A stretch of 64,000 nt of DNA. Source: Escherichia coli. GTDB lineage: Bacteria; Pseudomonadota; Gammaproteobacteria; Enterobacterales; Enterobacteriaceae. The translations under genes were made by a program, and so were the position numbers. Positions 38,889 to 60,012 of the stretch are shown here, in pieces (positions within the stretch are counted from its first letter, which is position 1; each line of letters opens with the position of its first letter). The DNA lies in NCBI RefSeq assembly GCF_044647545.1, contig NZ_CP172818.1. One strand, written 5' to 3'. The notes below the pieces were generated by a model. That model saw only the letters and a program-made list of their open reading frames with translations. It did no database searches and was not told the origin of the DNA.

Positions 38889-40119
38889 CTACGATAACCG
38901 CGCATTCAACATGGCTATCTGTTCGTCGTTCATGTCATCAATCCACATACCGTAAATTTCATACACCATCTGCGCAGTTTCATGCCCCATTTGGCTGGCT
39001 ATAAATGCCGGGTTCGCTCCTGCCGTCAACAGCCAGCAGGCAAAAGTATGCCGCGTATGGTACGGATTACGGCGGCGAATACCAGCACGTTTTACTGCTG
39101 CATTCCACCTTGCCCCCAAACTGCTTACCGAGTAATAAGGTTTTTGTTTTCCGTTACACACCCTGGGCATGAAAACAAAATGCAGTTTTTGCTTTTCGGT
39201 TCTGCATACTGCCGATAATAAAAGGTGACGACTTTTGCGATGATGCCCGGTCAGTTTGTATTGCTCCTTCAGTGCTTCAAGAGCAGGCTGCAGTAGTGTT
39301 ACTGTTCGGATCCCGGCATTTGTTTTTGGGGGACCGAACATATCGAGCCCTCGTCAGGTTTCTTCTGACATTCACTATTCCCTTTTCGAGATCCACATCC
39401 TCCCACGCCAGAGCTGCCAGTTCCCCGTGACGAAGTCCTGAGTAAACGGCAAAGTTCCACAAGTTCTCGCTATCTCCTTTTTCACTTTCCATTAATGCAT
39501 TGAATTCTGTTTTAGATAACGGATCAGGCTTTATTCTGTTCGCTGTAATTTTTTTACTCCTTCAAATGGTTTGGTTGATATAAATCCGACTGATACGCAA
39601 AACGCAACAGCGAACAGAGCAAGGCAATATCGTATCAACTGTGCGCACGGTTCTTCCTTTTTTGTTGGATCTTGGATTATCCAGGTAAAGCGTTTCTCCA
39701 TGCAGCAGTTCATTCCGGTAGTTTAAGATATCGCTATAACGAATATGTGATATCGGGGTACTTTCACAAATTATTATTCTGAGTGTTTTTAATTGTGATT
39801 TCGTTTTCTTCATTGTGTTTGTTGTTAACTCTGTCTCTTTAATTTTTGTCCAGATATCACAAAGCTCTCCGAACGTTTTTATGACTCTCGTTGTCACCAT
39901 TTTTGCCCCAGTGCTGGACTGGGGAAAACGTCTTAAATACTCAAATTCACCGGAGTTTATTTCATGAACTATCAGCGCTCTTAAATTTCCGGCCTTTTTA
40001 ATATTACTGTTTGTAATCTCCCAGCCTTTTAATGTTTCCCGACATCGTTTTCCTCGAAACATGAACCAGATGCGAATGTATCTACCTCTAATCTCGACAC
40101 CTGTTGGTAATTTAGACAT
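38889..40119 (-). pseudogene. intR: prophage tyrosine integrase, reading frame broken by at least two frameshifts
   Basis: Three consecutive minus-strand ORF fragments (39562-40119, 39277-39492, 38889-39341) together resemble one tyrosine recombinase (MSKLPTGVEIRGRYIRIWF...; ...LRHGELAALAWEDVD...; ...RHTFACWLLTAGANPAFIASQMGH...EIYGMW). Confidence 0.75.
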
Positions 40120-40120
40120 A

Positions 40121-40336
40121 TCATGAGTCTTTGATAAACTGATTTATCTTTGGATAGTTGTACCAGATAATCCCTCGTTTGCTGTCTGGCTTACCTAAAG
40201 GAGATACTCGTTTGAAGTGGAAGCCCTCCACCCAACAGTTCTGGCGGTATGCTTCAATTTGTCTGGCCCCCAGACCAGTGCGAAGCATCAGGCCGTATTC
40301 AACCATCCACTCTTCATTAAAGATTACTTGTGCCAT
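40121..40336 (-). CDS. xisR: excisionase-like protein
   Basis: ORF 40121-40360; likely 71-aa product from [15 protein letters not shown]...; immediately upstream of the integrase as in lambdoid int-xis modules. Confidence 0.7.
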
Positions 40337-40414
40337 CGCATCACCTCTGGCAGGCGCCAATGTTAGACTGAAATTGACGCCCGATGTTGATTATTAATAA
40401 TCAGCTATGAAGTT

Positions 40415-40696
40415 TTAATTTGAATACAATGCAATTCTCGAGGACTGAAGTTTCTCGCAATTAAAATTTATCAGTTTTACTTTCTGCTCTCTGGAAACGC
40501 CTGCTTCTTTTTTACCTGAGAGCATTTTTTCGCATTCTGATTTCGTTAGTTTAGATTTTGAATATCTTGTCCAGTTAGTAGGAGTGCCACCTTCCTTTTC
40601 AATAGTGGCGGTAATTTTATACATGAACACCTCCATTATTATTTCCAGTGGTTCGTTTATTCCATCTTTCGAGTGCTTCTTTTTCACTTCCACCAT
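40415..40696 (-). CDS. ydaC: prophage protein of unknown function (alternative internal starts give a 69-73 aa product)
   Basis: 93 aa maximal ORF; internal Met candidates (MEVFMYKITATIEKEGG...); overlaps the 3' end of ralR. Confidence 0.6.
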   Translation of the reverse strand: MVEVKKKHSKDGINEPLEIIMEVFMYKITATIEKEGGTPTNWTRYSKSKLTKSECEKMLSGKKEAGVSREQKVKLINFNCEKLQSSRIALYSN

Positions 40697-40811
40697 AACC
40701 GGTTCGGGATTCGCATCCGTTACACTTCGCTCGGTAATATCCTGAAATGGCTTTCACCGTTACTGATGGACAACCACAAAATGGACATGGTTTAACATTG
40801 TCATATCTCAT
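40617..40811 (-). CDS. ralR: restriction alleviation protein RalR (Lar-like), toxin of a type I toxin-antitoxin pair
   Basis: ORF 40617-40850; likely 64-aa product MRYDNVKPCPFCGCPSVTVKAISGYYRAKCNGCESRTGYGG... with Cys4 zinc-ribbon pattern. Confidence 0.7.
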   Translation of the reverse strand: MRYDNVKPCPFCGCPSVTVKAISGYYRAKCNGCESRTGYGGSEKEALERWNKRTTGNNNGGVHV

Positions 40812-40867
40812 AATTTTTCTCATAAAAAATATTTCAAGTTGGCGGTGCATTACACCGCCAGGCTGAA

Positions 40868-41677
40868 TTATTCCTCTGAATTATCGATTACACTGTATTC
40901 CCCGGTTAATACAGAGGAATCTGCAGGATCGATTGTCAGTGGTTCCTTTTCATCCATTGATACTGCACGCTGGATCTCAATTGATACGGGCAAATATTTG
41001 AACAGGCGACGAATAGCCGTTTTCTTTGCCATTTCTTCCCAGTGAGTTACCCACGGCCCGTTATTACCAGCTTTACTCAGGCTGCGCACCAGCTCAATCT
41101 GTTTGCGCGTCATAACTTCAAACTGAGTACCTCCGTCTTTCAGTCTTGCGACAGCATAGACGTGGGTAACCGGGGCATCTTCGTTTTCTCCCGGGCGGTG
41201 TATTAACTTTTCATCAAGGCCAAATTCGAAGCTAAACTCGTCACCTTCACGGACAACACGGGCTGACAGGCTGGCGATTTGACCAGAACGGCGAGCCAGA
41301 TCAATCATGCCGCGATAGCCAATGATTAGCTGAACGTTCTTTTTACCGCTCTTTTCGTTTTTATTACCAAAAGGCAGTAAATATGCATGACCGAGGGCGC
41401 TACCTGGCTCAAGTCCGAGCTGTGAACACTGTACGATCGCACTGACAAAACTCATAGTGTCACAGTTTCCTAACGCCGGAACTTTACGAATTTCTGTGGT
41501 GGCGATACGGATCATACGTTCAGCCGTCATATGGCGTGGAAGAGCTGCTGCCAGTTGCTCTTTCATTGATGGCTGGTTAATAAAACTAATCACGTCGCTA
41601 TTTTTAACTGCTGCTGGTGCACGGTTTCCCTGAGTTTTTTGCAGATCGGCTTTTGCGATTGGTGGTTGCTTAGTCAT
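40868..41677 (-). CDS. recT: single-strand annealing recombinase RecT
   Basis: ORF 40868-41734; likely start [16 protein letters not shown] at 41677; matches recalled RecT. Confidence 0.9.
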
Positions 41678-44312
41678 TTGCATATTCCTTAGCCCAGCGG
41701 GGCAGTGATAATGTCTTAATAGCTGGCCATTCATCGGTATTCAGGCAGTCAGACAGGGTTCGCAGATTGCGGTGATATTCCTGTTGACCTGCCAGTTTTG
41801 CTTCTTCGCCCATCATGAAAATTTCAACCGGATAACGTCCGCATTCAATAGTTGTGCTGGCAACCAGAAAAACGAAAGTTGGCTGCACTCCAAACTGTGC
41901 TTCATAACCGTCACTGTAGAATGCATCCTGAACGTGATAGCGGTAGTCGTAATAAGCGGTTTTGAATCGTTGAATATCCGCCGTAGTTTTCACGTCCATG
42001 ATCCAGTGAAATTCAGGGATAATTTTGTCCGGACGGCACCGACACAAAATTCCTGTTTCAGGATCTTCCCAGTAAATTGATGATTCAGCGTGTCCGGCGC
42101 TTTCAACAAGCCATTGCCCCAGCGGCAAAGCCATAACGCTTTGATACATGAGTTCAATTTTCCGGCCTTCTTCCGCAGTGATAACCGTTTTTCCTGTGCT
42201 TGCGCATTCCATCAGAAACGCTTTCTCTTCTTCTTTTCCGGCGTTTGTACGGCGGTTAAATTCAGGTGCTACGATAAAGCGGTTACTGAATTCTTCCGGT
42301 TCAAGTACCCGGCAGTGGAAAGCAGTTCCTAAATCGAGCGTTTTTGTCTTTGTGGTGTCCACGGGGGCATTTTTACGCCACAAATATAGTGCCGGAGTAT
42401 CAGCAATGTCATCGAGCTGAGACTTACTGATACCGGGACCCGCGTGGTAATTCTCATTCGAAATTCCGTAATAAATACCTGGCTCTATGTCTTCTACGAT
42501 TAAGGGATCTGACGCCTCGCCAGTTTCACTATCGCTGGCATGATGCTGATTGCTGCCAGTGTTCTCCTTGTGCTGATGCGCAGTGCCTTCCATTTCCTCC
42601 AGATCATTTTTCTGAACTTCAGGCTGATTCTCTCCATCGAATATTTCCTGGTATGTTGCGTCACCCATCACCGCACCACAATCAGGGCAGTTGCCGCCAC
42701 CGCTCTGACCGCAGGCGGTGCAGATCTTTTCCGGTTCCTGTTGCACTACTGGTTCAGGTTGTTTCGTTTCTGGCTCGTTTTGTTGCGTATTTGGGCTGTT
42801 TTGTTCCGCTTTCTGGTCGTTCTGTTCCGTTTCTTGCTGGTTCTGGTTCACAGAATCGCGGGTCTGGATCCCCTTAATCCATTTCGGATCATTCGGGTCG
42901 CTAATCCCTTCAACAAATTCACCACGTGATACTGCAAGCAGTTCATCGTCATCGACAGGATTTTTTGATGGAATGTTTTTCCGGGCTTCATGGAGTTCTG
43001 CCCGCAGTTCCTGATATTTCGCATCAACAGAATTTACCTGTGACTGAGCATCCAGCGGCTGCGTGTCCTGATGATGTTCAGTTGCGTCCGGTTCCATTGT
43101 TTCAGCCTCTCCCTGTTCAACTGCCGTTGTTCCAGATGGTTGCGGTTTTTCTTCATCATCCTGTTTTCCTTCTTCTGTTACTCGCTGCGGCATCGGGGCA
43201 GAGGAGCGACCGCAGGCAATATCCACGATTTCCGGATCAGGGTTGGCATGATCGGTTTCAGTCAGTACTTTGTTCAGATATTCAGTGACGTGCGCGGGGA
43301 TGACCTCGATCCCAATTGGTGCTTCTTTTACGGACGCAACCACGATGGCGCGGGAATAATCCAGCCCGCCAGGCATGGTGATGAATTTGTCGCGGAAAAC
43401 AGAAAAGGGCGGTTTATTTTCAGCGATAATTTCCTCAATGCGTTTAGCGTGTGCCGGATGAAGGTTATAGATGTCCAGATCCATTGAACGGGCCAGTACG
43501 CCAGTGGCTACGTCGCGCGCCAGTGACGTCAGATCGTGTACGAAACCTTCGCCGCGATCGGTGAGGTTTCCGCCGCCAGCATTAGCACCGGAAGCCGTGC
43601 GAGTGATGTGTGAAACACGATTACCCTTCATCCACTCTTTTGTCAGCAGTCCTCGATCGGTGTAGTCAGCGTTCAGGTATGCTTCGAAAAAAGCAGTTAT
43701 CAGTCCCAGGTTTGAATTACCAGGATTAGGGAAAACTTTGTCAGTGTCACGAACCAGTTTGTGGAGTTCGCGAATTTCCAGCGGGTCGAGCAGGCTGGTT
43801 TTGTGGGAAACAGCCAGGGCAGTAACAGCCGGTAGTTCTTCAGCCCGAGCAATGTGTAATGCCTGGAGTCCGTCGCGTGAAACGTGCGTTACCGGTTTTT
43901 CGCTGCCGTGTTGAGCAAGCCAACGAATGGGCAGTTCCTGGCCAGAAATTGGGAGTAGCATATTCTCCTCAATCTCAGTCATGTCTTCGCCGTTGACGTT
44001 GGTATTGCCTTGATAGTGAGCGTTGTCTGGTGCTGCTCCCGGTTTTAGTTCCCATGTCATGGAGTCTTTGCTGAGTTGATAGCGTTCACTCCAGGTAAAA
44101 TCGATCTCACCTTCAGCGGGCAGGTCATTAACGACAGGAAAATTCGTGGCAACAGCTTTAAAATAGCTGCTCAGTTTTTTACCTGACTTAACGATCAGGT
44201 AGTCCAGAGTGGCACAGGTCGATTCAAAATCGTTGCTTGCCCACAGGACGACGTCAGGTTCACCGGATGATTTTTTCGCTTTCCGTAACAGGAAGAGTGG
44301 TTTTGTGCTCAT
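41670..44312 (-). CDS. recE: exonuclease VIII (RecE)
   Basis: 880 aa ORF beginning [24 protein letters not shown]; Q/E/P-rich central linker; overlaps recT start by 8 nt. Confidence 0.9.
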
Positions 44313-44413
44313 TGTTTTTTAACCTCAACTCAGATTAAAATTCGTTTTGTTCAGTGAATGATCTTGCCGGATACACACTGTTCATAGCCTGCGCCATACG
44401 CAGGCTATTTCTT

Positions 44414-44689
44414 TCAGATTTCACCTTTTAATTTCATTGCAATTAGAGTTGCCAGAAATTCGGCTTTTTTTTCTGCGGGCAGATTCTTTCCGATATGCAC
44501 CAGGCACATTTTTTTGACACCTTCATCAAGTGTTTTTACGTTGCCTGATGGACCATCGATATCAACCACAGTGAATGGGGTTTCTTTATTTTCTGTTTTA
44601 ATTACGTAGCCAATGCGCTTTCCTTCCAGATTCACCTCGTGAACAATGTCATCGGTAGTTACAACAGTGGCTTCATAATTGGTAATCAT
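44414..44689 (-). CDS. racC: prophage protein RacC
   Basis: ORF 44414-44737; likely 91-aa product MITNYEATVVTTDDIVHEV...; upstream of recE. Confidence 0.7.
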   Translation of the reverse strand: MITNYEATVVTTDDIVHEVNLEGKRIGYVIKTENKETPFTVVDIDGPSGNVKTLDEGVKKMCLVHIGKNLPAEKKAEFLATLIAMKLKGEI

Positions 44690-44763
44690 GTTTTTCTCCT
44701 TAATTAAGGTTGAGCGAATACCTGCCATTTCTGGCATAAATTCAGTTTCGAATAGTCAATTAA

Positions 44764-44934
44764 TTAAAGTTCATGTGCCATCTGGTCTTTTTCGGCACAA
44801 GCTTCACTGCAATATTTTCTCGGTTCGTCTTTTGATAAAATCCCGTGCATGAAGTGAAGCATTCTTTCAATAGCTTTGCTTTCTTCAACGTCTTTTTTGC
44901 AAAGGTGGTAAGCACATTTTATTTTCTTAGTCAT
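44764..44934 (-). CDS. ydaE: small prophage protein YdaE (Cys-rich)
   Basis: 56-aa minus-strand [59 protein letters not shown]; start overlaps kilR stop; below ORF-track cutoff. Confidence 0.55.
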   Translation of the reverse strand: MTKKIKCAYHLCKKDVEESKAIERMLHFMHGILSKDEPRKYCSEACAEKDQMAHEL

Positions 44935-45155
44935 CACCATGACTCCGCCTTTACAGGTAAACCATCACGACCGAGGAAGACTTTAATCATGCGGTCAGTA
45001 ATGAATGTTTTTGTGGTCAGGTTACGAATATATAGTTTTCGCTTTTTAATATTGTTTGCCGAGGCAATATATGTCCGGCCTTCATGAAGAACATAATCGC
45101 CAGGAGTCACACACTGACGTGGTATTTCATCAGTTCCGAAGTGATGTGCAATCAT
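44934..45155 (-). CDS. kilR: cell-division inhibitor KilR
   Basis: ORF 44934-45167; 73-aa product [40 protein letters not shown]... matches recalled KilR. Confidence 0.8.
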
Positions 45156-45596
45156 AATTATCTCCATTTTTACAAATGAACTTTGTTGATGCGGTGTCTG
45201 GTGCCTCCAGGTGACTGCAACCAGTTAACAATTACAGTCGGCTTTCCCACCCAAACCAATAAGGACTAACATGACTTTTAACTGTGCCACGTGCGCTTAG
45301 CCGCATTCACCGCATCACAAAATTCACTTTAAAAAGGGCGGACATCAGCCGAACTTCAAGAAAAAAACTGATGCCGCCAGGACTACACACAGCAATGTCG
45401 TTATTTACAACCGGAGGCGCACTCCCACCATTTAAATTTAACAGACAAGACCGACTCTTTATGGATATCGGAAATGCGCCTTCGTGTTGTGCCCGGTTTT
45501 ATTTCACCACCTCCGGGCTTCGGTGGTCTCGGCTATACCCCTACAGCGAGAGCTTGTGTTAACATTTCAATACCCTTACAGTTGAGAGTTATTGAT

Positions 45597-46085
45597 ATGT
45601 TGGATGTATTTACTCCATTGTTGAAACTTTTTGCTAACGAGCCACTCGAAAGACTTATGTATACGATTATCATTTTTGGTCTCACTCTCTGGCTGATACC
45701 GAAAGAGTTTACTGTCGCATTCAATGCTTATACTGAAATACCTTGGCTCTTTCAGATTATCGTTTTTGCCTTTTCTTTCGTGGTCGCCATTTCCTTCTCA
45801 AGATTGCGAGCACATATTCAAAAGCATTATTCATTACTACCAGAGCAACGAGTATTGCTTCGTTTATCTGAGAAAGAAATCGCTGTATTTAAAGATTTCC
45901 TTAAAACAGGAAATCTTATTATCACTTCTCCTTGCCGTAACCCGGTTATGAAAAAATTAGAACGGAAGGGCATCATTCAACATCAGAGTGATAGCGCAAA
46001 CTGTTCTTATTATCTCGTCACCGAAAAATACTCCCATTTTATGAAGTTATTCTGGAACAGCAGGAGTAGACGTTTTAATCGTTAG
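45597..46085 (+). CDS. sieB: superinfection exclusion protein SieB
   Basis: ORF 45474-46085 without upstream in-frame start signal context; likely ATG at 45597 (MLDVFTPLLKLFANEPLERLMYTIIIFGLTLWLIP...), membrane-anchored N-terminus. Confidence 0.8.
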   Translation: MLDVFTPLLKLFANEPLERLMYTIIIFGLTLWLIPKEFTVAFNAYTEIPWLFQIIVFAFSFVVAISFSRLRAHIQKHYSLLPEQRVLLRLSEKEIAVFKDFLKTGNLIITSPCRNPVMKKLERKGIIQHQSDSANCSYYLVTEKYSHFMKLFWNSRSRRFNR

Positions 46086-46237
46086 CTTACTGTGTGCTTC
46101 TCCAACCATCGGCGCGCACCAGTTTCGGTTTTAAATGTTTTGCTTTTGGTATACGTCATGGCAGTGAACGTTCCATCCTGGTTGGGGAACACGCCGCACA
46201 CCAGGGATTCGTTGTTGCCGAGGTCGATTTTTTGCAT
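46082..46237 (-). CDS. ydaF: small prophage protein YdaF
   Basis: 51-aa minus-strand ORF MQKIDLGNNESLVCGVFPNQDGTFTAMTYTKSKTFKTETGARRWLEKHTVS; below ORF-track cutoff. Confidence 0.5.
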   Translation of the reverse strand: MQKIDLGNNESLVCGVFPNQDGTFTAMTYTKSKTFKTETGARRWLEKHTVS

Positions 46238-46247
46238 TTTGCGAATC

Positions 46248-46382
46248 TCACATCTTGTTGCTACGTATAGCGACTTCTGCCTGCCAGAGATCCCAGTCGT
46301 TGCTGCGTAAAGCCTGCACAGCCTGGTTGTAAGTGATACCGCAACAATCCATCAAATACTGAACTACTTCGTAATGCACCAT
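46248..46382 (-). CDS. ydaG: small prophage protein YdaG
   Basis: 44-aa minus-strand ORF MVHYEVVQYLMDCCGITYNQAVQALRSNDWDLWQAEVAIRSNKM; below ORF-track cutoff. Confidence 0.5.
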   Translation of the reverse strand: MVHYEVVQYLMDCCGITYNQAVQALRSNDWDLWQAEVAIRSNKM

Positions 46383-46551
46383 CTTATCTCTCCCCTTAAC
46401 GCCGGGTGGCGGAACTAACTGCTGCACTGCAAAATTTGAATCCCGCCGTCATGTTCATACGCCTCGGGCTGGCTACTTAACCCCTTACCACTGCCTGGTA
46501 ACTCGAAGTATTGCCCGGCGTTCTGTGGGGCGGGGTGGGTGGTATGCTGGA

Positions 46552-46596
46552 ACTATAGGTAATGCCTAATTGATTGTCAATAGGCTATGCCTAATG
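46552..46596 (-). promoter_or_regulatory. leftward early promoter (PL-like) with overlapping operator half-sites, downstream of racR
   Basis: Minus strand reads cctaTTGACAat-17 bp-TATAGT; TGCCTAA/TTAGGC half-sites at 46563-46570 and 46581-46595 (taggc-tat-gccta inverted repeat). Confidence 0.4.
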
Positions 46597-46690
46597 TTTT
46601 GAGCGTAACCTAATAGGTGATGGCGACAGCAGAAAGTGATGGGGGGGTTAAATAACGGAATCCAGGAGTTTTCCGTCAGACCATATAAGT

Positions 46691-47167
46691 TTAAGTTCCA
46701 GTTTTTGTGATGTTCTGGCTTTTCCGTTCAGATTCAAGAGCTTTCAGATACTTACCCACTTTCATTTCCATCGCTGCTATGTAGGCGCGAACATCGTGGT
46801 CAACCCAATCTGGTTCTGTAGCATTTCCAGATAACAGGAAAGCTACAATCGCTCTTATTTCATCAGAGGCTGCTTGATAAAGGTTGTTTATATCTAAAAG
46901 TTCACTTTTTGTATCTGAATTGGTGGGGGTTGGTATGGGGTATTCGTTAAGCCCCCAATGCTCTGGACCAACAACATCAGAAAAGAAACGCCATAATTCT
47001 GGAAGTTTATCTTTACTTATAGAGCCTTTCTTAATCCAGTCATAAATTGATGGTGGTTGGACTTTAAAGTGGCGTGCGACCTCCGCCTTTGATTTGACGG
47101 ATCCCGATGCGATTTTTTTGTTAATGGCCTGCTCTATCGCTCGGCCTAAGTCTTTACCACTAAGCAT
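46691..47167 (-). CDS. racR: prophage repressor RacR (cI-like role)
   Basis: 158 aa ORF with N-terminal HTH-like region; divergent from ydaS; flanked on both sides by operator-like repeats. Confidence 0.8.
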   Translation of the reverse strand: MLSGKDLGRAIEQAINKKIASGSVKSKAEVARHFKVQPPSIYDWIKKGSISKDKLPELWRFFSDVVGPEHWGLNEYPIPTPTNSDTKSELLDINNLYQAASDEIRAIVAFLLSGNATEPDWVDHDVRAYIAAMEMKVGKYLKALESERKSQNITKTGT

Positions 47168-47194
47168 TGCTTAATATTCTCCTATGCGCATTAC

Positions 47195-47264
47195 ATTAGG
47201 CAATCCCTACCCTTACTGCATTAGGCACAGCCTATTGACAATTGCGTTAGGCGTCGCCTAATAT
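47195..47264 (+). promoter_or_regulatory. rightward early promoter (PR-like) with operator repeats between racR and ydaS
   Basis: attaggca at 47195-47202 and 47220-47227; cctaTTGACAat at 47231-47242; perfect palindrome ttaggcg-t-cgcctaa at 47247-47261 in the spacer; TAATAT -10 at 47259-47264. Confidence 0.45.
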
Positions 47265-47290
47265 TTCTGTGTGTTTTTGGAGTTCATTCG

Positions 47291-47587
47291 ATGAAAAAAG
47301 AGAACTATTCATTCAAGCAAGCTTGTGCTGTTGTCGGTGGGCAATCAGCAATGGCTAGGCTTTTAGGTGTATCACCTCCAAGCGTAAATCAATGGATCAA
47401 AGGGGTACGTCAATTGCCTGCCGAGAGATGTCCAGCAATTGAACGTGCAACAAGAGGTGAGGTTCTGTGCGAAGAACTTCGTCCTGATATTGACTGGTCA
47501 TATTTACGACGTTCGGCATGTTGTTCGCAGAATATGTCAGTGAAGCAACTAAATGACAGTAACAAATCCTCATTTGATCATACCTGA
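47291..47587 (+). CDS. ydaS: Cro/HTH-like small DNA-binding protein YdaS
   Basis: 98 aa ORF with HTH (FKQACAVVGGQSAMARLLGVSPPSVNQWIKG); first gene of rightward operon. Confidence 0.8.
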   Translation: MKKENYSFKQACAVVGGQSAMARLLGVSPPSVNQWIKGVRQLPAERCPAIERATRGEVLCEELRPDIDWSYLRRSACCSQNMSVKQLNDSNKSSFDHT

Positions 47588-47609
47588 AACATCAAGAGGC
47601 AAATGATTC

Positions 47610-48032
47610 ATGAAAATCAAGCATGAGCACATCGAATCAGTGTTGTTTGCCCTAGCAGCCGAAAAAGGGCAGGCATGGGTAGCCAATGCAATTACTGAAG
47701 AATATCTGCGCCAGGGGGGCGGCGAATTGCCCCTGGTTCCAGGCAAGGACTGGAACAATCAGCAGAATATCTATCACCGTTGGTTGAAAGGTGAAACGAA
47801 AACGCAAAGAGAAAAAATTCAGAAGCTGATCCCAGCAATTCTGGCAATCCTTCCGCGCGAGCTGCGTCACCGACTCTGCATCTTCGATACCCTGGAACGC
47901 CGTGCATTACTGGCGGCGCAGGAAGCGTTAAGTACGGCAATTGATGCGCATGATGATGCAGTCCAAGCCGTTTACCGGAAAGCGCATTTCAGCGGCGGCG
48001 GTTCTTCCGACGATTCTGTCATTGTTCATTAA
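47610..48032 (+). CDS. ydaT: prophage protein YdaT (cII-position protein)
   Basis: 140 aa ORF immediately downstream of ydaS. Confidence 0.8.
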   Translation: MKIKHEHIESVLFALAAEKGQAWVANAITEEYLRQGGGELPLVPGKDWNNQQNIYHRWLKGETKTQREKIQKLIPAILAILPRELRHRLCIFDTLERRALLAAQEALSTAIDAHDDAVQAVYRKAHFSGGGSSDDSVIVH

Positions 48033-48044
48033 GCAAAAGTTTCC

Positions 48045-48902
48045 ATGCTGTTTGTGCTTATTCTAAGCCACCGGGCAGCATCATACGGGGCAATTATGGC
48101 CGCATTACCATACATGCAACTGTACATAGCTGATTACCTGGCTGACACCATGCATTTGTCAGCAGAGGAGCATGGTGCGTATTTGTTGCTGATGTTCAAT
48201 TACTGGCAAACAGGAAAGCCAATACCTAAAAACAGGCTGGCAAAAATTGCCCGTCTGACTAACGAGCGATGGGCTGATGTTGAACCATCCTTGCAGGAGT
48301 TTTTTTGCGATAACGGCGAGGAATGGGTGCATCTTCGGATTGAGGAAGATCTGGCATCAGTCAGGGAAAAATTAACCAAAAAATCAGCCGCAGGAAAAGC
48401 ATCTGTTCAGGCCAGAAGAAGCAGAAAGGAAGCAGATGTTCAAACAAAACAAGAGAGAAATTTAACAGGTGTTCAAACAGATGTTGAAGTGGTGTTTGAA
48501 CATGATGTCAACACAAAGGCAACTAATAAAGATACAGATAAAGATCTAAAAACAGATCCCCCCCTAAATCCCCCCCGGGGGAATCGAGGTGTCAAAAAGT
48601 TTGACCCTCTGGATATTACTTTGCCGAACTGGATTTCTGTCTCGCTTTGGCGTGAGTGGGTTGAATTTCGCCAGGCATTGCGAAAACCGATTCGAACGGA
48701 GCAGGGCGCTAACGGGGCGATACGGGAGCTGGAAAAATTCCGCCAGCAGGGTTTTTCACCTGAGCAGGTGATTCGACACAGCATCGCCAATGAATACCAG
48801 GGCTTGTTCGCGCCGAAAGGTGTTCGACCTGAGACGTTACTCCGACAGGTTAACACCGTCTCGTTACCGGATAGTGCGATCCCGCCAGGCTTCAGGGGGT
48901 AA
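48045..48902 (+). CDS. ydaU: replication-initiation-like protein YdaU (lambda O position)
   Basis: 285 aa ORF preceding a DnaC-like gene, lambdoid O-P arrangement. Confidence 0.75.
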   Translation: MLFVLILSHRAASYGAIMAALPYMQLYIADYLADTMHLSAEEHGAYLLLMFNYWQTGKPIPKNRLAKIARLTNERWADVEPSLQEFFCDNGEEWVHLRIEEDLASVREKLTKKSAAGKASVQARRSRKEADVQTKQERNLTGVQTDVEVVFEHDVNTKATNKDTDKDLKTDPPLNPPRGNRGVKKFDPLDITLPNWISVSLWREWVEFRQALRKPIRTEQGANGAIRELEKFRQQGFSPEQVIRHSIANEYQGLFAPKGVRPETLLRQVNTVSLPDSAIPPGFRG

Positions 48903-48908
48903 CTGACC

Positions 48909-49655
48909 ATGAAAAATATTGCGACAGGCGATGTTCTTGAACGTATCCGCAGACTGGCCCCGTCACATGTAACCGCGCCATTCAAGACGGTAGCGGAGTG
49001 GCGCGAGTGGCAACTTTCCGAAGGCCAGAAACGTTGTGAGGAGATCAACCGTCAGAATCGTCAGTTGCGGGTGGAAAAAATTCTGAATCGCTCTGGCATC
49101 CAGCCATTGCACCGCAAATGCTCGTTTTCGAATTACCAGGTGCAGAACGAAGGGCAGCGATACGCGTTGAGTCAGGCGAAATCCATCGCTGATGAACTGA
49201 TGACCGGGTGTACAAATTTTGCGTTCAGCGGAAAACCTGGTACCGGGAAGAACCACTTAGCGGCAGCTATCGGGAATCGCCTGCTGAAAGACGGTCAGAC
49301 AGTGATTGTGGTTACCGTGGCTGATGTTATGAGTGCCCTGCACGCCAGCTATGACGATGGGCAGTCAGGCGAAAAATTTTTGCGGGAACTGTGCGAAGTG
49401 GATCTGCTGGTTCTTGATGAAATTGGCATTCAGCGCGAGACGAAAAACGAGCAGGTGGTACTGCACCAGATTGTTGATCGCCGGACAGCGTCGATGCGCA
49501 GCGTGGGGATGCTGACAAACCTGAACTATGAGGCCATGAAAACATTGCTCGGCGAGCGGATTATGGATCGCATGACCATGAACGGCGGGCGATGGGTGAA
49601 TTTTAACTGGGAGAGCTGGCGTCCGAATGTCGTCCAGCCAGGAATTGCGAAGTAA
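48909..49655 (+). CDS. ydaV: DnaC/IstB-like AAA+ replication protein (helicase loader)
   Basis: 248 aa ORF with Walker A ([15 protein letters not shown]) and Walker B (LLVLDEIG). Confidence 0.8.
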
Positions 49656-50199
49656 TTTTTACCGGGAGAAAAATTTAATGGAGACTGTTTTTGACGCACT
49701 GAAAGCAATGGGAAAAGCCACATCCATAGAACTTGCTGCGCGACTTGATATCAGTCGTGAAGAAGTGCTGAACGAACTATGGGAACTGAAAAAGGCTGGT
49801 TTTGTTGATAAAAGCGCGTACACCTGGCGTGTGGCTGATAACAATGTTCAGCAGGAACAGCCAGCGCAGGCAGAACTGCCGGAAGAAATCACCACAGCAA
49901 CAGTAGCGAAAATCTCAGAGTGCGATTTAACCGCGACGATTGAACAACGAGGACCACAAACGGCTGATGAGCTGGCTACATTGTTTGGTACCACATCACG
50001 CAAAGTGGCTTCAACGCTGGCAATGGCAATCAGCAAAGGTCGTCTGATTCGCGTAAATCAGGGCGGTAAATTTCGTTACTGCATACCGGGCGATAATTTA
50101 CCAGCAGAGCCGAAAGCAGCATCGGTATCTCCGCTCTGGTTATCTGCATCATCGTCTGCCTGTCATGGGCTGTTAATCATTACCGTGATAACGCCATGA
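49627..50199 (+). CDS. ydaW: prophage protein YdaW, probably a remnant; 3' end runs out of frame over the Rz N-terminal coding region
   Basis: 190 aa ORF; N-terminal winged-helix-like region; its last ~33 codons overlap sequence that encodes an Rz transmembrane segment in another frame. Confidence 0.5.
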
Positions 50200-54408: not shown

Positions 54409-54524
54409 TGGCGGGGCCATCTGTACGCGTGAATGAATGGTTCAGTGCTTATGCGATGGCGGGTGTGGCTTACAGCCGTGTTTCGACGTTCTCCGGGGAT
54501 TATCTCCGCGTAACTGACAACAAG

Positions 54525-55720
<1,196 letters not shown>

Positions 55721-55968: not shown

Positions 55969-58900
55969 GTGGATATGGCAGCAGTAAAAATCTCAGGTGT
56001 GCTGAAAGATGGTGCGGGAAAACCAATACAGAACTGCACTATTCAACTGAGGGCAAAGCGTAACAGCACCACGGTACTGGTGAACACGGTGGCCTCTGAA
56101 AATCCGGATGAAGCCGGGCGTTACAGCATGGATGTTGAGTATGGCCAGTACAGCGTCACCCTGCTGGTTGAAGGTTTTCCGCCTTCACATGCCGGAACCA
56201 TTACCGTCTATGAAGGTTCCAGACCAGGTACGCTGAATGATTTTCTCGGTGCCATGACGGAAGATGATGTCATGCCGGAGGCATTGCGTCGTTTTGAGGC
56301 AATGGTGGAAGAAGCGGCACGCAACGCGTCCGCGGTGGCACAGAACACGGCAGCCGCGAAGAAGTCAGCCAGTGATGCCAGCACATCAGCCCGTGAGGCG
56401 GCAACCCATGCGGCTGATGCTGCGGACTCAGCACGCGCAGCCAGCACGTCAGCCGGACAGGCCGCGTCGTCGGCTCAGTCAGCGTCTTCCAGCGCAGGAA
56501 CGGCATCAACAAAGGCCACTGAAGCATCAAAAAGTGCTGCCGCTGCAGAGTCCTCAAAAAGCGCGGCGGCCACCAGTGCCGGTGCGGCGAAAACGTCAGA
56601 AACGAATGCTTCAGCGTCACTACAATCAGCAGCCACATCTGCATCCACCGCGACCACGAAGGCATCAGAAGCTGCGACCTCGGCCCGGGATGCGGCGGCC
56701 TCAAAAGAAGCGGCAAAATCATCAGAAACGAACGCATCATCAAGCGCCAGTAGTGCAGCTTCCTCGGCAACGGCGGCAGGAAATTCCGCGAAGGCGGCAA
56801 AAACGTCCGAGACGAACGCCAGGTCTTCTGAAACGGCAGCGGGACAGAGCGCCTCGGCTGCGGCAGGCTCAAAAACAGCGGCTGCGTCGTCTGCCAGTGC
56901 AGCGTCAACAAGTGCCGGGCAGGCCTCAGCCAGTGCCACCGCCGCCGGAAAATCGGCAGAAAGCGCCGCATCGTCTGCTTCAACAGCCACAACGAAGGCT
57001 GGCGAAGCCACTGAACAGGCCAGCGCAGCAGCGAGGTCTGCTTCCGCAGCGAAGACATCCGAAACGAACGCGAAAGCGTCGGAAACAAGCGCAGAATCCT
57101 CAAAAACGGCTGCCGCATCGTCAGCCAGTTCGGCGGCGTCATCGGCATCATCGGCGTCTGCTTCAAAAGATGAGGCGACCAGACAAGCGTCAGCAGCGAA
57201 GAGCAGCGCCACGACGGCATCCACGAAGGCGACAGAGGCTGCTGGCAGTGCGACGGCGGCAGCTCAGAGCAAAAGTACGGCGGAATCCGCGGCAACGCGC
57301 GCCGAGACAGCAGCTAAACGGGCAGAGGATATTGCATCCGCCGTGGCGCTTGAGGATGCAAGTACGACGAAAAAGGGGATAGTACAGCTCAGCAGTGCGA
57401 CCAACAGTACGTCTGAAACGCTGGCGGCAACGCCAAAGGCAGTAAAATCAGCCTATGACAATGCAGAGAAACGTCTGCAGAAAGACCAGAACGGCGCTGA
57501 TATACCCGATAAGGGATGCTTCCTGAACAACATTAACGCGGTCAGTAAAACAGACTTTGCTGATAAGCGTGGTATGCGTTATGTGCGGGTTAACGCTCCT
57601 GCAGGTGCAACATCTGGAAAATATTACCCTGTTGTTGTTATGCGTTCTGCTGGCTCAGTAAGCGAACTGGCATCAAGAGTCATTATCACCACGGCAACGC
57701 GAACCGCAGGCGATCCGATGAATAACTGCGAGTTTAACGGATTTGTTATGCCTGGTGGCTGGACTGACAGGGGGCGTTATGCTTATGGCATGTTCTGGCA
57801 ATATCAAAACAATGAACGAGCCATTCACTCAATAATGATGAGTAATAAGGGCGATGATTTGCGCTCTGTGTTCTATGTTGATGGCGCTGCTTTCCCTGTT
57901 TTTGCGTTTATTGAAGATGGCCTGTCAATATCCGCACCTGGTGCTGATCTCGTTGTTAATGATACGACCTATAAGTTTGGGGCAACAAATCCGGCGACTG
58001 AATGTATCGCGGCGGACGTTATCCTTGATTTTAAGAGTGGGCGTGGTTTTTATGAGTCTCATTCGTTAATCGTTAACGATAACTTGTCGTGCAAAAAACT
58101 TTTTGCCACAGACGAAATTGTAGCGCGTGGTGGTAATCAGATTCGAATGATAGGTGGGGAGTATGGTGCATTATGGCGTAATGATGGCGCTAAAACTTAC
58201 CTGCTGCTTACCAATCAAGGTGATGTTTATGGTGGCTGGAATACATTAAGACCGTTTGCTATTGATAACGCAACCGGCGAACTGGTTATTGGAACCAAAC
58301 TGTCCGCAAGTCTGAACGGTAATGCATTAACAGCAACAAAGCTGCAAACGCCAAGACGGGTTTCTGGTGTTGAGTTTGATGGTTCCAAAGATATTACTTT
58401 AACCGCCGCGCATGTGGCTGCTTTTGCCAGAAGGGCAACGGATACATATGCCGATGCGGATGGTGGCGTTCCATGGAATGCCGAATCTGGCGCTTACAAT
58501 GTCACCCGCTCTGGCGACAGCTATATTCTGGTTAACTTCTATACCGGAGTCGGAAGTTGCCGGACCCTGCAGATGAAGGCGCATTACAGAAATGGTGGTC
58601 TGTTCTACCGTTCTTCAAGAGACGGTTATGGTTTTGAGGAAGACTGGGCAGAAGTTTATACCTCGAAAAATCTTCCACCAGAAAGCTACCCAGTCGGCGC
58701 ACCAATCCCGTGGCCATCAGATACGCCACCTGCAGGTTATGCAATCATGCAGGGGCAGACGTTTGATAAGGCAGCATATCCGAAACTGGCTATTGCCTAT
58801 CCTTCTGGTGTTATTCCAGATATGCGCGGCTGGACAATCAAGGGCAAACCCGCCAGTGGTCGGGCCGTATTGTCTCAGGAACAGGATGGCATTAAATCGC

Positions 58901-59340
58901 ACACCCACAGTGCCAGCGCATCCAGTACGGATTTGGGTACGAAAACCACATCGTCGTTTGATTACGGTACTAAATCAACGAATAACACAGGTGCACATAC
59001 CCACAATGTATCTGGTACTGCAAATAGTGCTGGCGCACATACTCATACCGTTCCATTAAGGAGACCAAACAGTGGCGGTATGAATTTCGACTGGCTGGAT
59101 GGTTCATCAAGTGGCACGGTGGTGGGGAATGGAACTGTGCCTTCTTCTGGCGCACATACCCACTCAGTATCAGGTACCGCTACAAGTGCTGGGGCACATG
59201 CACACACTGTTGGTATTGGCGCTCATACGCACTCTGTTAAGATTGGTTCACATGGACACACCATCACCGTTAACGCTGCTGGTAACGCGGAAAACACCGT
59301 TAAAAACATCGCATTTAATTATATTGTGAGGCTTGCATAA
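55969..59340 (+). CDS. stfR: side tail fibre protein
   Basis: 1123 aa ORF (GTG at 55969; ATG at 55975); long Ala/Ser/Thr-rich low-complexity central region and C-terminal His-rich repeats (GAHTHxVSGTA). Confidence 0.85.
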
Positions 59341-59915
59341 TGGCATTCAGAATGAGTGAACAATCACGTACCGTAAAAATTTATAACCTGCTGGCCGGAA
59401 CTAATGAGTTTATTGGTGAAGGTGACGCATATATTCCACCTCATACAGGGCTGCCAGCTAATTCTACAGATATCGCCCCACCGGAAATTCCTGCTGGCTT
59501 TGTGGCAGTTTTTAACAGTGAAAATGAATCGTGGAATATTGTTGAAGACCATCGTGGTAAAACGGTCTATGACGTGGCGTCGGGGGACGCATTGTTTATT
59601 TCTGAACTCGGACCGCTACCAGAGAATGTCACCTGGTTGTCGCCAGCAGGGGAGTATCAGAAGTGGGACGGCGTATCCTGGGTGAATGATGAGGAAGCAG
59701 AAAAACTGTTTCGGATACGGGAAGCGGAAGAAAGAAAAAGCAACCTGATGCAGGTAGCCAGTGAGCATATTGCGCCGCTTCAGGATGCTGCAGATCTGGA
59801 AATTGCAACGGAGGAAGAAACCCCGTTGCTGGAAGCATGGAAAAAGTATCGGGTATTGCTGAACCGTGTTGATACGTCAACTGCACAGGATATTGAATGG
59901 CCAGCACTGCCGTAG
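59340..59915 (+). CDS. tfaR: tail fibre assembly protein
   Basis: 191 aa ORF whose ATG overlaps the stfR stop (TAATG); Tfa family. Confidence 0.85.
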
Positions 59916-60012
59916 GGTAAAACATATAAATTCTATAATTAGATGTATCTTTCCATTTACGGCAAGGAAGGGGGCTTGGAAGACGTAAAGCATCTCACAC
60001 CGAGATTATTTT

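Follow-up and report, generated by a model that had tools for sequence, protein, structure and literature searches.

An intact recET module in the early-left operon of a Rac prophage, with a recE cassette matching a lambdoid phage exonuclease gene

Introduction

RecET is the founding recombineering system, and the left operon of the Rac prophage is a textbook silenced prophage module; finding the pair once more adds nothing new. In E. coli K-12, RecE resects double-strand ends in the 5′-to-3′ direction, and RecT pairs the resulting 3′ overhang with a complementary strand, giving RecA-independent recombination (the "RecE pathway"). The locus described here raises a narrower question: from where are recE and recT transcribed, are both genes intact, and what makes this RecE 880 aa long instead of the 866 aa of K-12? 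We addressed it in a 64-kb stretch of E. coli DNA, hereafter the window.

Results

A Rac early-left operon carries the five genes

Five genes in the order kilR-ydaE-racC-recE-recT, all on the minus strand, were recovered from the list of open reading frames, at the coordinates of the original prediction:

40868-41677, minus strand: recT, single-strand annealing protein, 269 aa; 100% identical to K-12 RecT; PF03837 (E=1e-55), RecT structure PDB 7UB2 (E=2e-14)
41670-44312, minus strand: recE, exodeoxyribonuclease VIII, 880 aa, uninterrupted; PF06630, PF12684, PDB 3H4R
44414-44689, minus strand: racC, 91 aa; DNA identical to K-12; phrog_4778
44764-44934, minus strand: ydaE, 56 aa, small Cys/His-rich protein; DNA identical to K-12; phrog_1520
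44934-45155, minus strand: kilR, 73 aa, inhibitor of FtsZ and MreB; DNA identical to K-12; phrog_294 (PMC12482147)

The Rac genes of K-12 map one-to-one onto these five, with order and coordinates in agreement, and the reading frames, the K-12 comparison and Pfam together bear out the prediction that recE and recT lie intact downstream of racC, ydaE and kilR. RecT, RacC, YdaE and KilR show no differences from the K-12 proteins. RecT belongs to its family by both fold and sequence (PF03837, K-12 identity, PDB 7UB2), and KilR matches phrog_294, "Kil protein for bacterial septation inhibition" (E=7.5e-35). The ydaE start overlaps the kilR stop (TGATG), and the first 8 nt of recT lie within the 3′ end of recE, as read from the junction sequence; the longest recT reading frame begins at 41734, the K-12 start being at 41677.

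The operon continues past recT into ralR, rcbA, xisR and intR, and the wider neighbourhood reads as follows:

~38892-40119, minus strand: intR pseudogene, frameshifted; left prophage end beside ttcA
40121-40336, minus strand: xisR; left prophage end
40415-40624, minus strand: rcbA/ydaC, downstream operon continuation; K-12 annotation, Pfam
40440-40618, plus strand: RalA antisense sRNA; Rfam RF02694, 225 bits
40617-40811, minus strand: ralR, downstream operon continuation; K-12 annotation, Pfam
45597-46085, plus strand: sieB, superinfection exclusion; PF14163 (E=1.5e-31), K-12 annotation
46082-46237, minus strand: ydaF; PF07151 (DUF1391), K-12 annotation
46248-46382, minus strand: ydaG; K-12 annotation, UBA-like domain (Pfam)

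Insertion beside ttcA and a gene order that follows K-12 from intR through ydaS mark the element as Rac, and the region is the early-left operon of that prophage in a non-K-12 E. coli. The chromosomal flanks of the prophage are 1-5% diverged from K-12; positions 39700-50000 are identical to MG1655 apart from a patch in recE, with zero differences from K-12 over 43000-50000, a span that covers racC, ydaE and kilR. Indels relative to K-12 are few across the window and cluster in intR, in the recE patch and at ~59000-59150; their small number and local distribution rule out a generally poor assembly. Six of them fall in intR, splitting IntR over three frames (tblastn) and leaving a single 185-aa N-terminal reading frame.

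A predicted leftward promoter is overlapped by two predicted RacR operators

The controlling elements upstream of the five genes are:

46552-46580, minus strand: PL-like leftward promoter, TTGACA-17-TATAGT; top scan site (11/12), same in K-12
46555-46594, minus strand: two RacR-operator-like palindromes, 25 bp apart; match the consensus of PMC9638921
46691-47167, minus strand: racR, prophage repressor (cI analogue); K-12 annotation, PMC5700373, PMC9638921
47197-47264, no strand assigned: three RacR operator consensus palindromes between racR and ydaS, with the rightward ydaS promoter TTGACA-18-TAATAT; scans here, footprinting and primer extension in PMC9638921

The promoter that had been named at 46580 proved to be the best sigma-70 match, at 11 of 12 positions, in a 7 kb scan (40300-47400). 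That scan returned nine promoter-like sites where 10.7 were expected by chance, so the scan alone is weak evidence. We then considered the RacR operator consensus, (T/A)TAGGC-n3-GCCTA(T/A) (PMC9638921). One match, TTAGGCATAGCCTAT (46594-46580), abuts the −35 element of the leftward promoter, and a second, TTAGGCATTACCTAT (46569-46555), overlaps its −10 element. With at most one mismatch allowed, the core pattern was found at five places in the 64-kb window (expected: 1.09), a count that none of 100 shuffles reached, and all five matches are confined to 46556-47260. The three intergenic operators are spaced 25-26 bp apart; O3 as published is to their left and covers the racR start codon, at ~47161-47173 (PMC9638921). 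A strong promoter overlapped by repressor operators, as in a lambdoid PL-type operon, is thus present at the level of sequence. In the literature consulted we found no description of RacR operators or RacR binding at the two leftward sites; the placement of these predicted operators over the −35 and −10 supports the 46580 site as the controlling promoter.

The first genes downstream of this promoter are ydaG and ydaF, whose Pfam matches are to a UBA-like domain and DUF1391 and not to N; depletion of RacR induces both ~40-fold (PMC6765115). On the opposite strand, sieB lies within the path of the leftward transcript.

Read-through and Rho/NusG termination would together set recET expression

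From the sequence and the K-12 literature, we propose that a single promoter at ~46580-46552 would send transcripts leftward through ydaG, ydaF, sieB in antisense, a 440-nt untranslated stretch, kilR, ydaE, racC, recE and recT, and then into ralR, rcbA and xisR, so that recET would depend on read-through from 46580. In the lysogen, RacR would sit on the two operators over the −35 and −10, and Rho/NusG would end stray transcripts, and recE and recT would thus stay silent. Should repression fail, the genes would be made together, with the stop/start overlaps at kilR/ydaE and recE/recT probably coupling translation.

Several published observations bear on this scheme. Lowering RacR in K-12 raises ydaG, ydaF, kilR, ydaE, racC, ralA and ydaC 40-70-fold (PMC6765115). 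These induced genes flank recET on both sides; recE and recT are not themselves named there. A deletion from sieB to ydaU, which removes racR and keeps kilR, is viable (PMC5700373). The Rho terminator trac and NusG/OxyS control kilR (PMC4150792, PMC12482147); silencing depends also on Rho/NusG termination, which refines the original account based on the promoter.

That account had also held that recE and recT lack an obvious strong promoter of their own, and our scan agrees: from 46552 to 44312 the minus strand has no site that reaches 10/12, and the DNA immediately before recE has none either. Might either gene nevertheless be driven independently of read-through from 46580, from the racC-recE gap or from a site inside recE? 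A TTTAAT hexamer resembling a −10 lies ~20 nt upstream of the recE start, but it has no acceptable −35 and fails the scan. A 10/12 sigma-70-like site on the minus strand at 42412-42383, inside recE and ~700 nt upstream of recT, might in principle drive recT; however, it is one of the nine sites found where 10.7 are expected by chance. Moreover, recET is reported to be fully repressed in MG1655 and to need sbcA mutations for activation (PMC3945230, PMC6379578), and the flanking genes rise together when RacR falls (PMC6765115). We consider an independent promoter very unlikely, and favour read-through from 46580.

We detected no intrinsic-terminator-like site on the minus strand from 46552 to 42405. 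One structure in this interval was considered as an intrinsic terminator of the leftward operon and rejected:

44384-44408, minus strand: stable hairpin with an 11-bp stem between racC and recE; fold energy −25.3 kcal/mol, z=−3.2

Its U-rich tail is on the other strand, and without a U-run on the operon strand it is not intrinsic-terminator-like for leftward transcripts.

RecE is intact and differs from K-12 in its linker

In RecE a low-complexity linker joins the N-terminal region to a C-terminal PD-DXK nuclease domain; the roles of RecE domains are described in PMC11611040. PF06630, the enterobacterial ExoVIII N-terminal region, covers aa 2-178 (E=5e-98), PF12684 covers aa 629-864 (E=4e-28), and the solved RecE domain PDB 3H4R matches aa 619-880 (E=3e-180). 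The PD-(D/E)XK domain, the ExoVIII N-terminal region and the adjacent annealing-protein gene recT together identify the protein as RecE. The exact 880-aa sequence is WP_400165235.1. It shares 94% identity with the 866-aa K-12 RecE: aa 1-455 are identical to K-12, and aa 605-880 equal K-12 residues 591-866, and therefore all catalytic residues are kept. Neither recE nor recT carries an inactivating mutation, a change that would have spoken against the original prediction. Since the catalytic domain is untouched by the altered segment described below, the 880-aa RecE should, judging from its residues, keep its activity.

The Q/E/P-rich linker that had been predicted for the 880-aa reading frame is present: 48% of RecE aa 380-605 are Q, E, P, D or N, against 26-27% in the flanking domains. 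It contains the following repeat:

42759-42842, minus strand: degenerate 21-bp (7-aa) tandem array, 4 copies; TRF period 21, 4.0 copies, 74% matches

K-12 recE has two repeat units fewer, appearing as a 42-bp insertion here at 42773. A comparison across strains confirmed the further prediction that linker length differs between them. Full-length RecE relatives are 866, 877, 878, 880, 885, 889, 891-893 or 899 aa long. Measured between KGI[QE]T and CPDCG as anchors, which was possible in 130 of 134 RecE relatives, linker length fell into five classes: 57 aa (n=88), 58 aa (n=27), 43 aa (the K-12 type; n=13), 51 aa (n=1) and 65 aa (n=1). The 21-bp array is the source of this variation, in 7-aa steps. 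The linker changes by repeat-unit steps and by cassette exchange, and not in length alone.

A 450-bp cassette of recE matches a phage exonuclease gene

All 111 base differences between this recE and that of K-12 fall at 42503-42944, and all 111 equal the ECONIH1 exonuclease gene. They define one segment:

42499-42948, minus strand: replaced cassette, RecE aa 456-605; matches the middle of an 823-aa DEDD-type phage exonuclease

The cassette is made up of a tract rich in Q, E, N and P, a CxxC-x7-CxxC knuckle and an acidic tail. Over its 450 bp (408 bp in the K-12 counterpart) it is 100% identical to the ECONIH1 exonuclease gene, and it is 99.8% identical to its counterpart in the complete genome of phage mEp460_ev081, where the donor family also occurs. 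Parts of the patch are only ~72% identical to the K-12 version, and each junction has four identical bases. Outside the patch, recE is that of K-12, whereas the ECONIH1 exonuclease gene is unrelated; proteins of the 823-aa donor family carry a DEDD domain (PF16473) and lack a PD-(D/E)XK one. Base for base, then, this recE is a K-12 recE with a whole-cassette swap, apparently from the exonuclease family of mEp460-like lambdoid phages.

A trivial origin has to be weighed, namely that assembly or polishing mixed in reads from a paralogous exonuclease gene of the same genome. The patch borders coincide with the similarity limits of the two gene families, as mis-mapped reads could give; the exact 880-aa protein was found on one contig only; and the hybrid is absent from the complete E. 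coli genomes of the collection, among which 42350-43050 has a best full-length match of 91.5%. However, the 42-bp length difference, the ~72% stretches and junction identities of four bases make it unlikely that mis-mapped reads or k-mer graph joins lie behind the patch, the frame is exactly preserved, and the few, local indels of the window do not indicate an assembly that is error-prone in general. Other RecE alleles also carry shorter exact donor stretches of 40-56 aa, from which it follows that exchange between the two families occurs in nature. We saw these with a longest-exact-match scan, which replaced a global blastp of the 823-aa exonuclease against 134 RecE proteins whose long gapped alignments hid the patches. 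We regard an artefact as extremely improbable, and take the swap as real.

The second issue is direction. The 823-aa family could have taken its cassette from such a recE, or this could be an old recE lineage that underwent no recent conversion. Both families carry the cassette as a discrete module whose borders in K-12 recE are the same, and the 57-aa form of the repeat tract found here is the commonest among RecE relatives (88/130). The C-terminal third of the cassette tells otherwise: for aa 541-610, identity to the 133 other RecE sequences never exceeds 69%, but a 211-bp probe covering this third (42490-42700) finds matches of 99% identity or more in 56 complete E. coli genomes. All twelve of those listed are 100% identical over 42499-42700 and are annotated "exonuclease" and not exodeoxyribonuclease VIII. 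The whole cassette is, moreover, 99.8% identical in a phage, and both flanks are 100% identical to K-12 for kilobases, as would be expected more of a recent import into a K-12-type recE than of an old lineage. Transfer in the opposite direction, or an old lineage, is in our judgement unlikely; import into recE is the direction we infer.

Most likely, this import would have come about by annealing-type recombination of Rac with an mEp460-like phage, either resident in the same cell or infecting it. Both junctions are found no more than 4 bp from where homology ends, a pattern not readily accounted for by ordinary homologous crossing-over. Junctions at exact homology limits are the pattern expected if a single strand annealed and its non-matching tails were trimmed. 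Tentatively, we go one step further and suggest, as a possibility of which we are far from convinced, that the RecE linker is a self-contained cassette and not a passive spacer, common to large prophage exonucleases of two unrelated families, between which it passes as a unit, and that the exchange here was a very recent one, in which the recombinase gene was itself the target of "relaxed" recombination of the RecT/Beta type. The mEp460-like phage would have supplied a long single strand that annealed over the whole cassette at a replication fork, with the tails that found no match then trimmed off. The patch and its surroundings show zero mismatches to either parent, taken here as a sign of a very recent event.

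Discussion

We consider it highly probable that the locus as a whole is the Rac early-left operon, served by a RacR-repressed promoter at 46580-46552 and containing a recE with an imported cassette. The recE-recT module itself is already known; it is intact and, by design, probably silent, and its sole oddity is the 450-base swap in recE.

The closest relative is the Rac recE-recT region of K-12, which shares the ttcA-side insertion and the order intR, xisR, rcbA, ralR, recT, recE, racC, ydaE, kilR, sieB, ydaF, ydaG, racR, ydaS. The two agree completely in RecT, RacC, YdaE and KilR, in the promoter and its operators, and in RecE aa 1-455 and the whole nuclease domain. The differences are the frameshifted intR and a 450-bp cassette in place of the 408-bp one, with two extra 7-aa units and the 111 base changes, giving a RecE of 880 aa and not 866.

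The arrangement also resembles the PL operon of lambda, with its Red genes exo, bet, gam and kil, in that a repressor gene is transcribed towards an operator-bearing leftward promoter, and in that a long operon holds a cell-division inhibitor (kil/kilR), an exonuclease and annealing-protein pair, and then xis and int. Unlike lambda, the Rac operon has sieB in antisense inside it, and RecT is no sequence relative of Beta. RecE and lambda Exo share the PD-(D/E)XK fold and both act in pairs with their partners, but RecE is four times larger and a tetramer, whereas Exo is a trimer (PMC11611040). RacR is ~15% identical to lambda cI (PMC5700373).

The 823-aa "exonuclease" of mEp460/CP-933P-type lambdoid phages (PHROG 2082) occupies, like recE, the slot just upstream of xis-int in a leftward operon and has the central cassette in common with RecE, at 100% over 450 bp in the window. 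It differs in its catalytic domain, a DEDD 3′-5′ one (PF16473) instead of PD-(D/E)XK, in an N-terminal 450 aa at most weakly similar to RecE, and in having no adjoining recT or bet.

Two RacR-type sites on the leftward promoter would give a direct, testable reason for the co-repression of recET, kilR and ralR with ydaS-ydaT. As for RecE, efficient linear-linear cloning relies on the full-length protein, and we know of no function assigned to its N-terminal 600 residues. A natural allele that carries a whole central cassette from another exonuclease family would offer a ready-made test of whether the cassette matters.

The recET module is intact

Five module genes were read from the open reading frames (ORFs) of 39500-48500:

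40868-41677, minus strand: recT, 269 aa when read from the K-12 start; a start at 41734 would give the longest ORF
41670-44312, minus strand: recE, 880 aa
44414-44689, minus strand: racC, 91 aa
44764-44934, minus strand: ydaE, 56 aa
44934-45155, minus strand: kilR, 73 aa

These ORFs, their mapping to MG1655 and the domain matches agree with the original prediction of an intact recE and recT accompanied by racC, ydaE and kilR, with RecE at the anticipated 880 aa. K-12 strains matched 40000-47000 over its full length at 99.0% (megablast, complete E. coli genomes), with recE, recT, racC, kilR, sieB and racR annotated beneath the match, and the window genes corresponded one-to-one with the MG1655 annotation. 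RecT (PF03837) was 100% identical to K-12 RecT and matched PDB 7UB2, while RecE (PF06630 and PF12684) was 94% identical with a single 14-aa insertion, its nuclease domain matching 3H4R; KilR was assigned to the Kil family. An inactivating change, which had been named as grounds for refuting the prediction, was found in neither recE nor recT. Just downstream of recT lies the RalA antitoxin sRNA (40440-40618, plus strand; Rfam RF02694, 225 bits), antisense to rcbA/ralR.

RacR-type operators at the predicted leftward promoter

A consensus scan of 40300-47400 picked up nine promoter-like sites where chance would give 10.7, so the scan by itself proves little. Its top site (minus strand 46580-46552, TTGACA-17-TATAGT, 11/12) is the predicted PL-like promoter. 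The next minus-strand site, at 10/12, falls inside recE (42412-42383), and from 46552 to the start of recE no site scored high enough to pass, consistent with the claim that recE has no obvious promoter of its own upstream.

The 46580 promoter bears two palindromes spaced 25 bp apart, TTAGGCATAGCCTAT abutting the -35 and TTAGGCATTACCTAT overlapping the -10. As read from the sequence, both match the RacR operator consensus (T/A)TAGGC-n3-GCCTA(T/A) published from footprinting of the racR-ydaS intergenic region (PMC9638921). Allowing up to one mismatch, the 64-kb window holds five copies of TAGGC-N3-GCCTA where 1.09 are expected, a count that 0 of 100 shuffles reached; all five fall within 46556-47260, where three belong to the known operator region and two sit on the 46580 promoter. 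We found no description of the two leftward RacR-type operators in the literature consulted.

In K-12, lowered RacR raised ydaG, ydaF, kilR, ydaE, racC, ralA and ydaC 40-70-fold (PMC6765115), and these genes flank recET on either side. A sieB-to-ydaU deletion that removes racR but keeps kilR is viable (PMC5700373), which fits a kilR promoter within the deleted interval. MG1655 recET is fully repressed and is turned on by sbcA mutations (PMC3945230, PMC6379578). Taken together, the sequence and the published K-12 work make a RacR-controlled leftward operon a well-supported model for recET.

In K-12, kilR is also silenced by Rho, via the trac terminator, and by NusG (PMC4150792, PMC12482147). 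We found no intrinsic-terminator-like site on the minus strand from the promoter to recE. A hairpin in the racC-recE gap (44384-44408; perfect 11-bp stem, -25.3 kcal/mol, z=-3.2) has its U-/T-rich tail on the plus strand, opposite to the operon, and might act as a terminator for antisense transcripts or lend stability to the 3' end of racC. To reach kilR, the leftward transcript would have to run antisense through sieB (45597-46085, plus strand) and then through 440 nt without an annotated gene (45156-45596); this stretch is a likely place for Rho-dependent termination.

The RecE linker varies by repeat units

Residues 380-605 of RecE contain 48% Q/E/P/D/N, compared with 26-27% in the flanking domains. 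Tandem Repeats Finder detected a four-copy, 21-bp array at 42759-42842, and the 14 residues extra over K-12 are two 7-aa units (a 42-bp insertion at 42773). Measured between two conserved anchors in 130 of 134 RecE relatives, the linker stretch was 57 aa in 88, 58 in 27, 43 (the K-12 type) in 13, and 51 and 65 in one each, changing by one or two repeat units and bearing out the prediction of a Q/E/P-rich linker variable between strains. An alternative N-terminal 100 aa, 11 residues longer, is a second source of length difference and gives the common 891-aa form. Rare alleles of 774 aa (P0003) and 785 aa (P0013) have lost the greater part of the linker through large in-frame deletions, suggesting that it is dispensable in some strains.

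Within this low-complexity region, C531, C534, C542 and C545 are nearly invariant. This CxxC-x7-CxxC motif (42678-42722, aa 531-545), a possible zinc knuckle, is conserved in RecE and in a family of 823-aa DEDD exonucleases carried by mEp460-like lambdoid phages.

A cassette in recE matches a phage exonuclease gene

All 111 base differences from K-12 recE fall within 42503-42944. Among the complete E. coli genomes of the collection, full-length matches to 42350-43050 reached no more than 91.5%, and none of 133 other RecE proteins exceeded 69% identity to the patch's C-terminal third (aa 541-610). A 211-bp probe covering that third (42490-42700) found matches of 99% identity or more in 56 complete genomes. 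The 12 matches listed agreed with 42499-42700 at 100% and lie in genes whose annotation reads simply 'exonuclease'. In the copy of strain ECONIH1, the 823-aa product ends in a DEDD 3'-5' exonuclease domain (PF16473, E=7e-67) rather than a PD-(D/E)XK nuclease; the gene adjoins xis and int, has dicB upstream and lacks a neighbouring recT. This gene and window 42499-42948 (aa 456-605) were 100% identical over 450 bp, and beyond these limits we detected no DNA similarity between it and the window recE, which there equals K-12. The complete genome of lambdoid phage mEp460_ev081 has a gene of this kind as well, with the cassette at 99.8% identity.

The most economical explanation would be that a K-12-type recE recently acquired the entire cassette from an mEp460-type gene: cassette and surrounding recE match their respective parents with zero mismatches. 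Both junctions lie no more than 4 bp from where similarity between the gene families ends. That the patch is an assembly artefact is unlikely, since the junctions have just four bases in common, the patch holds a 42-bp length difference, and indels are few across the remaining window. Transfer in the reverse direction, from recE to the 823-aa gene, is less likely because the cassette is common in 823-aa genes and unique among sampled RecE proteins. Ordinary homologous crossing-over needs matching sequence beyond the converted tract, which is absent. We infer that a long donor single strand may have annealed over the entire shared cassette, its unmatched tails then being trimmed; phage annealing proteins tolerate diverged partners (PMC3945230). 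The longest exact run shared with the 823-aa exonuclease is 150 aa here and 40-56 aa in other RecE alleles, the latter indicating that exchange between the families recurs. The 880-aa protein is WP_400165235.1 in NCBI and was seen on one 4.5-Mb contig.

The exchange leaves the nuclease domain unaltered, the last changed residue being L604 (K-12 V590). K-12 RecE fragments that begin at residue 564 or 588 are enough to support recombination (PMC11611040, PMC3945230), so the 880-aa allele should be active; linear-linear recombination is better with full-length RecE (PMC11611040).

The surrounding prophage

The chromosomal flanks are 1-5% diverged from MG1655 (23-147 substitutions per 2 kb), and alignment to MG1655 gave 95-98% identity for them; the strain is not K-12. 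By comparison, 39700-42400 and 43000-50000 show zero differences, so that some 10 kb of prophage (39700-50000) equals MG1655 base for base save for the recE patch, suggesting recent exchange of this segment between lineages. The Rac integrase gene intR (38892-40119; best match among complete E. coli genomes, 98.4%) has six small indels relative to K-12, is broken up across three reading frames and retains only a 185-aa N-terminal ORF; this Rac copy is probably unable to excise through its own integrase. Further right in the prophage, 58000-60000 departs sharply from K-12, with 162 substitutions over 2 kb and more than 20 small indels inside 140 bp (59009-59146) close to an Rfam IS009 match (59683-59881). 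An IS5-family element within the prophage (54523-55720) is 91% identical to the K-12 chromosomal IS5 copy, and the K-12 IS5 near ynaJ is missing at the equivalent place of the window. The left chromosomal flank carries the sRNA genes fnrS (RF01796; 36018-36135, plus strand) and mcaS (RF00115; 32545-32640, minus strand).

Overall, the locus is the recET module already familiar from Rac, ordinary in layout and control. The original observation and its interpretation both hold, refined by Rho/NusG silencing, the cassette swap and repeat-unit variation of the linker; the swap, like the two leftward RacR-type operators, adds a minor point that can be checked.
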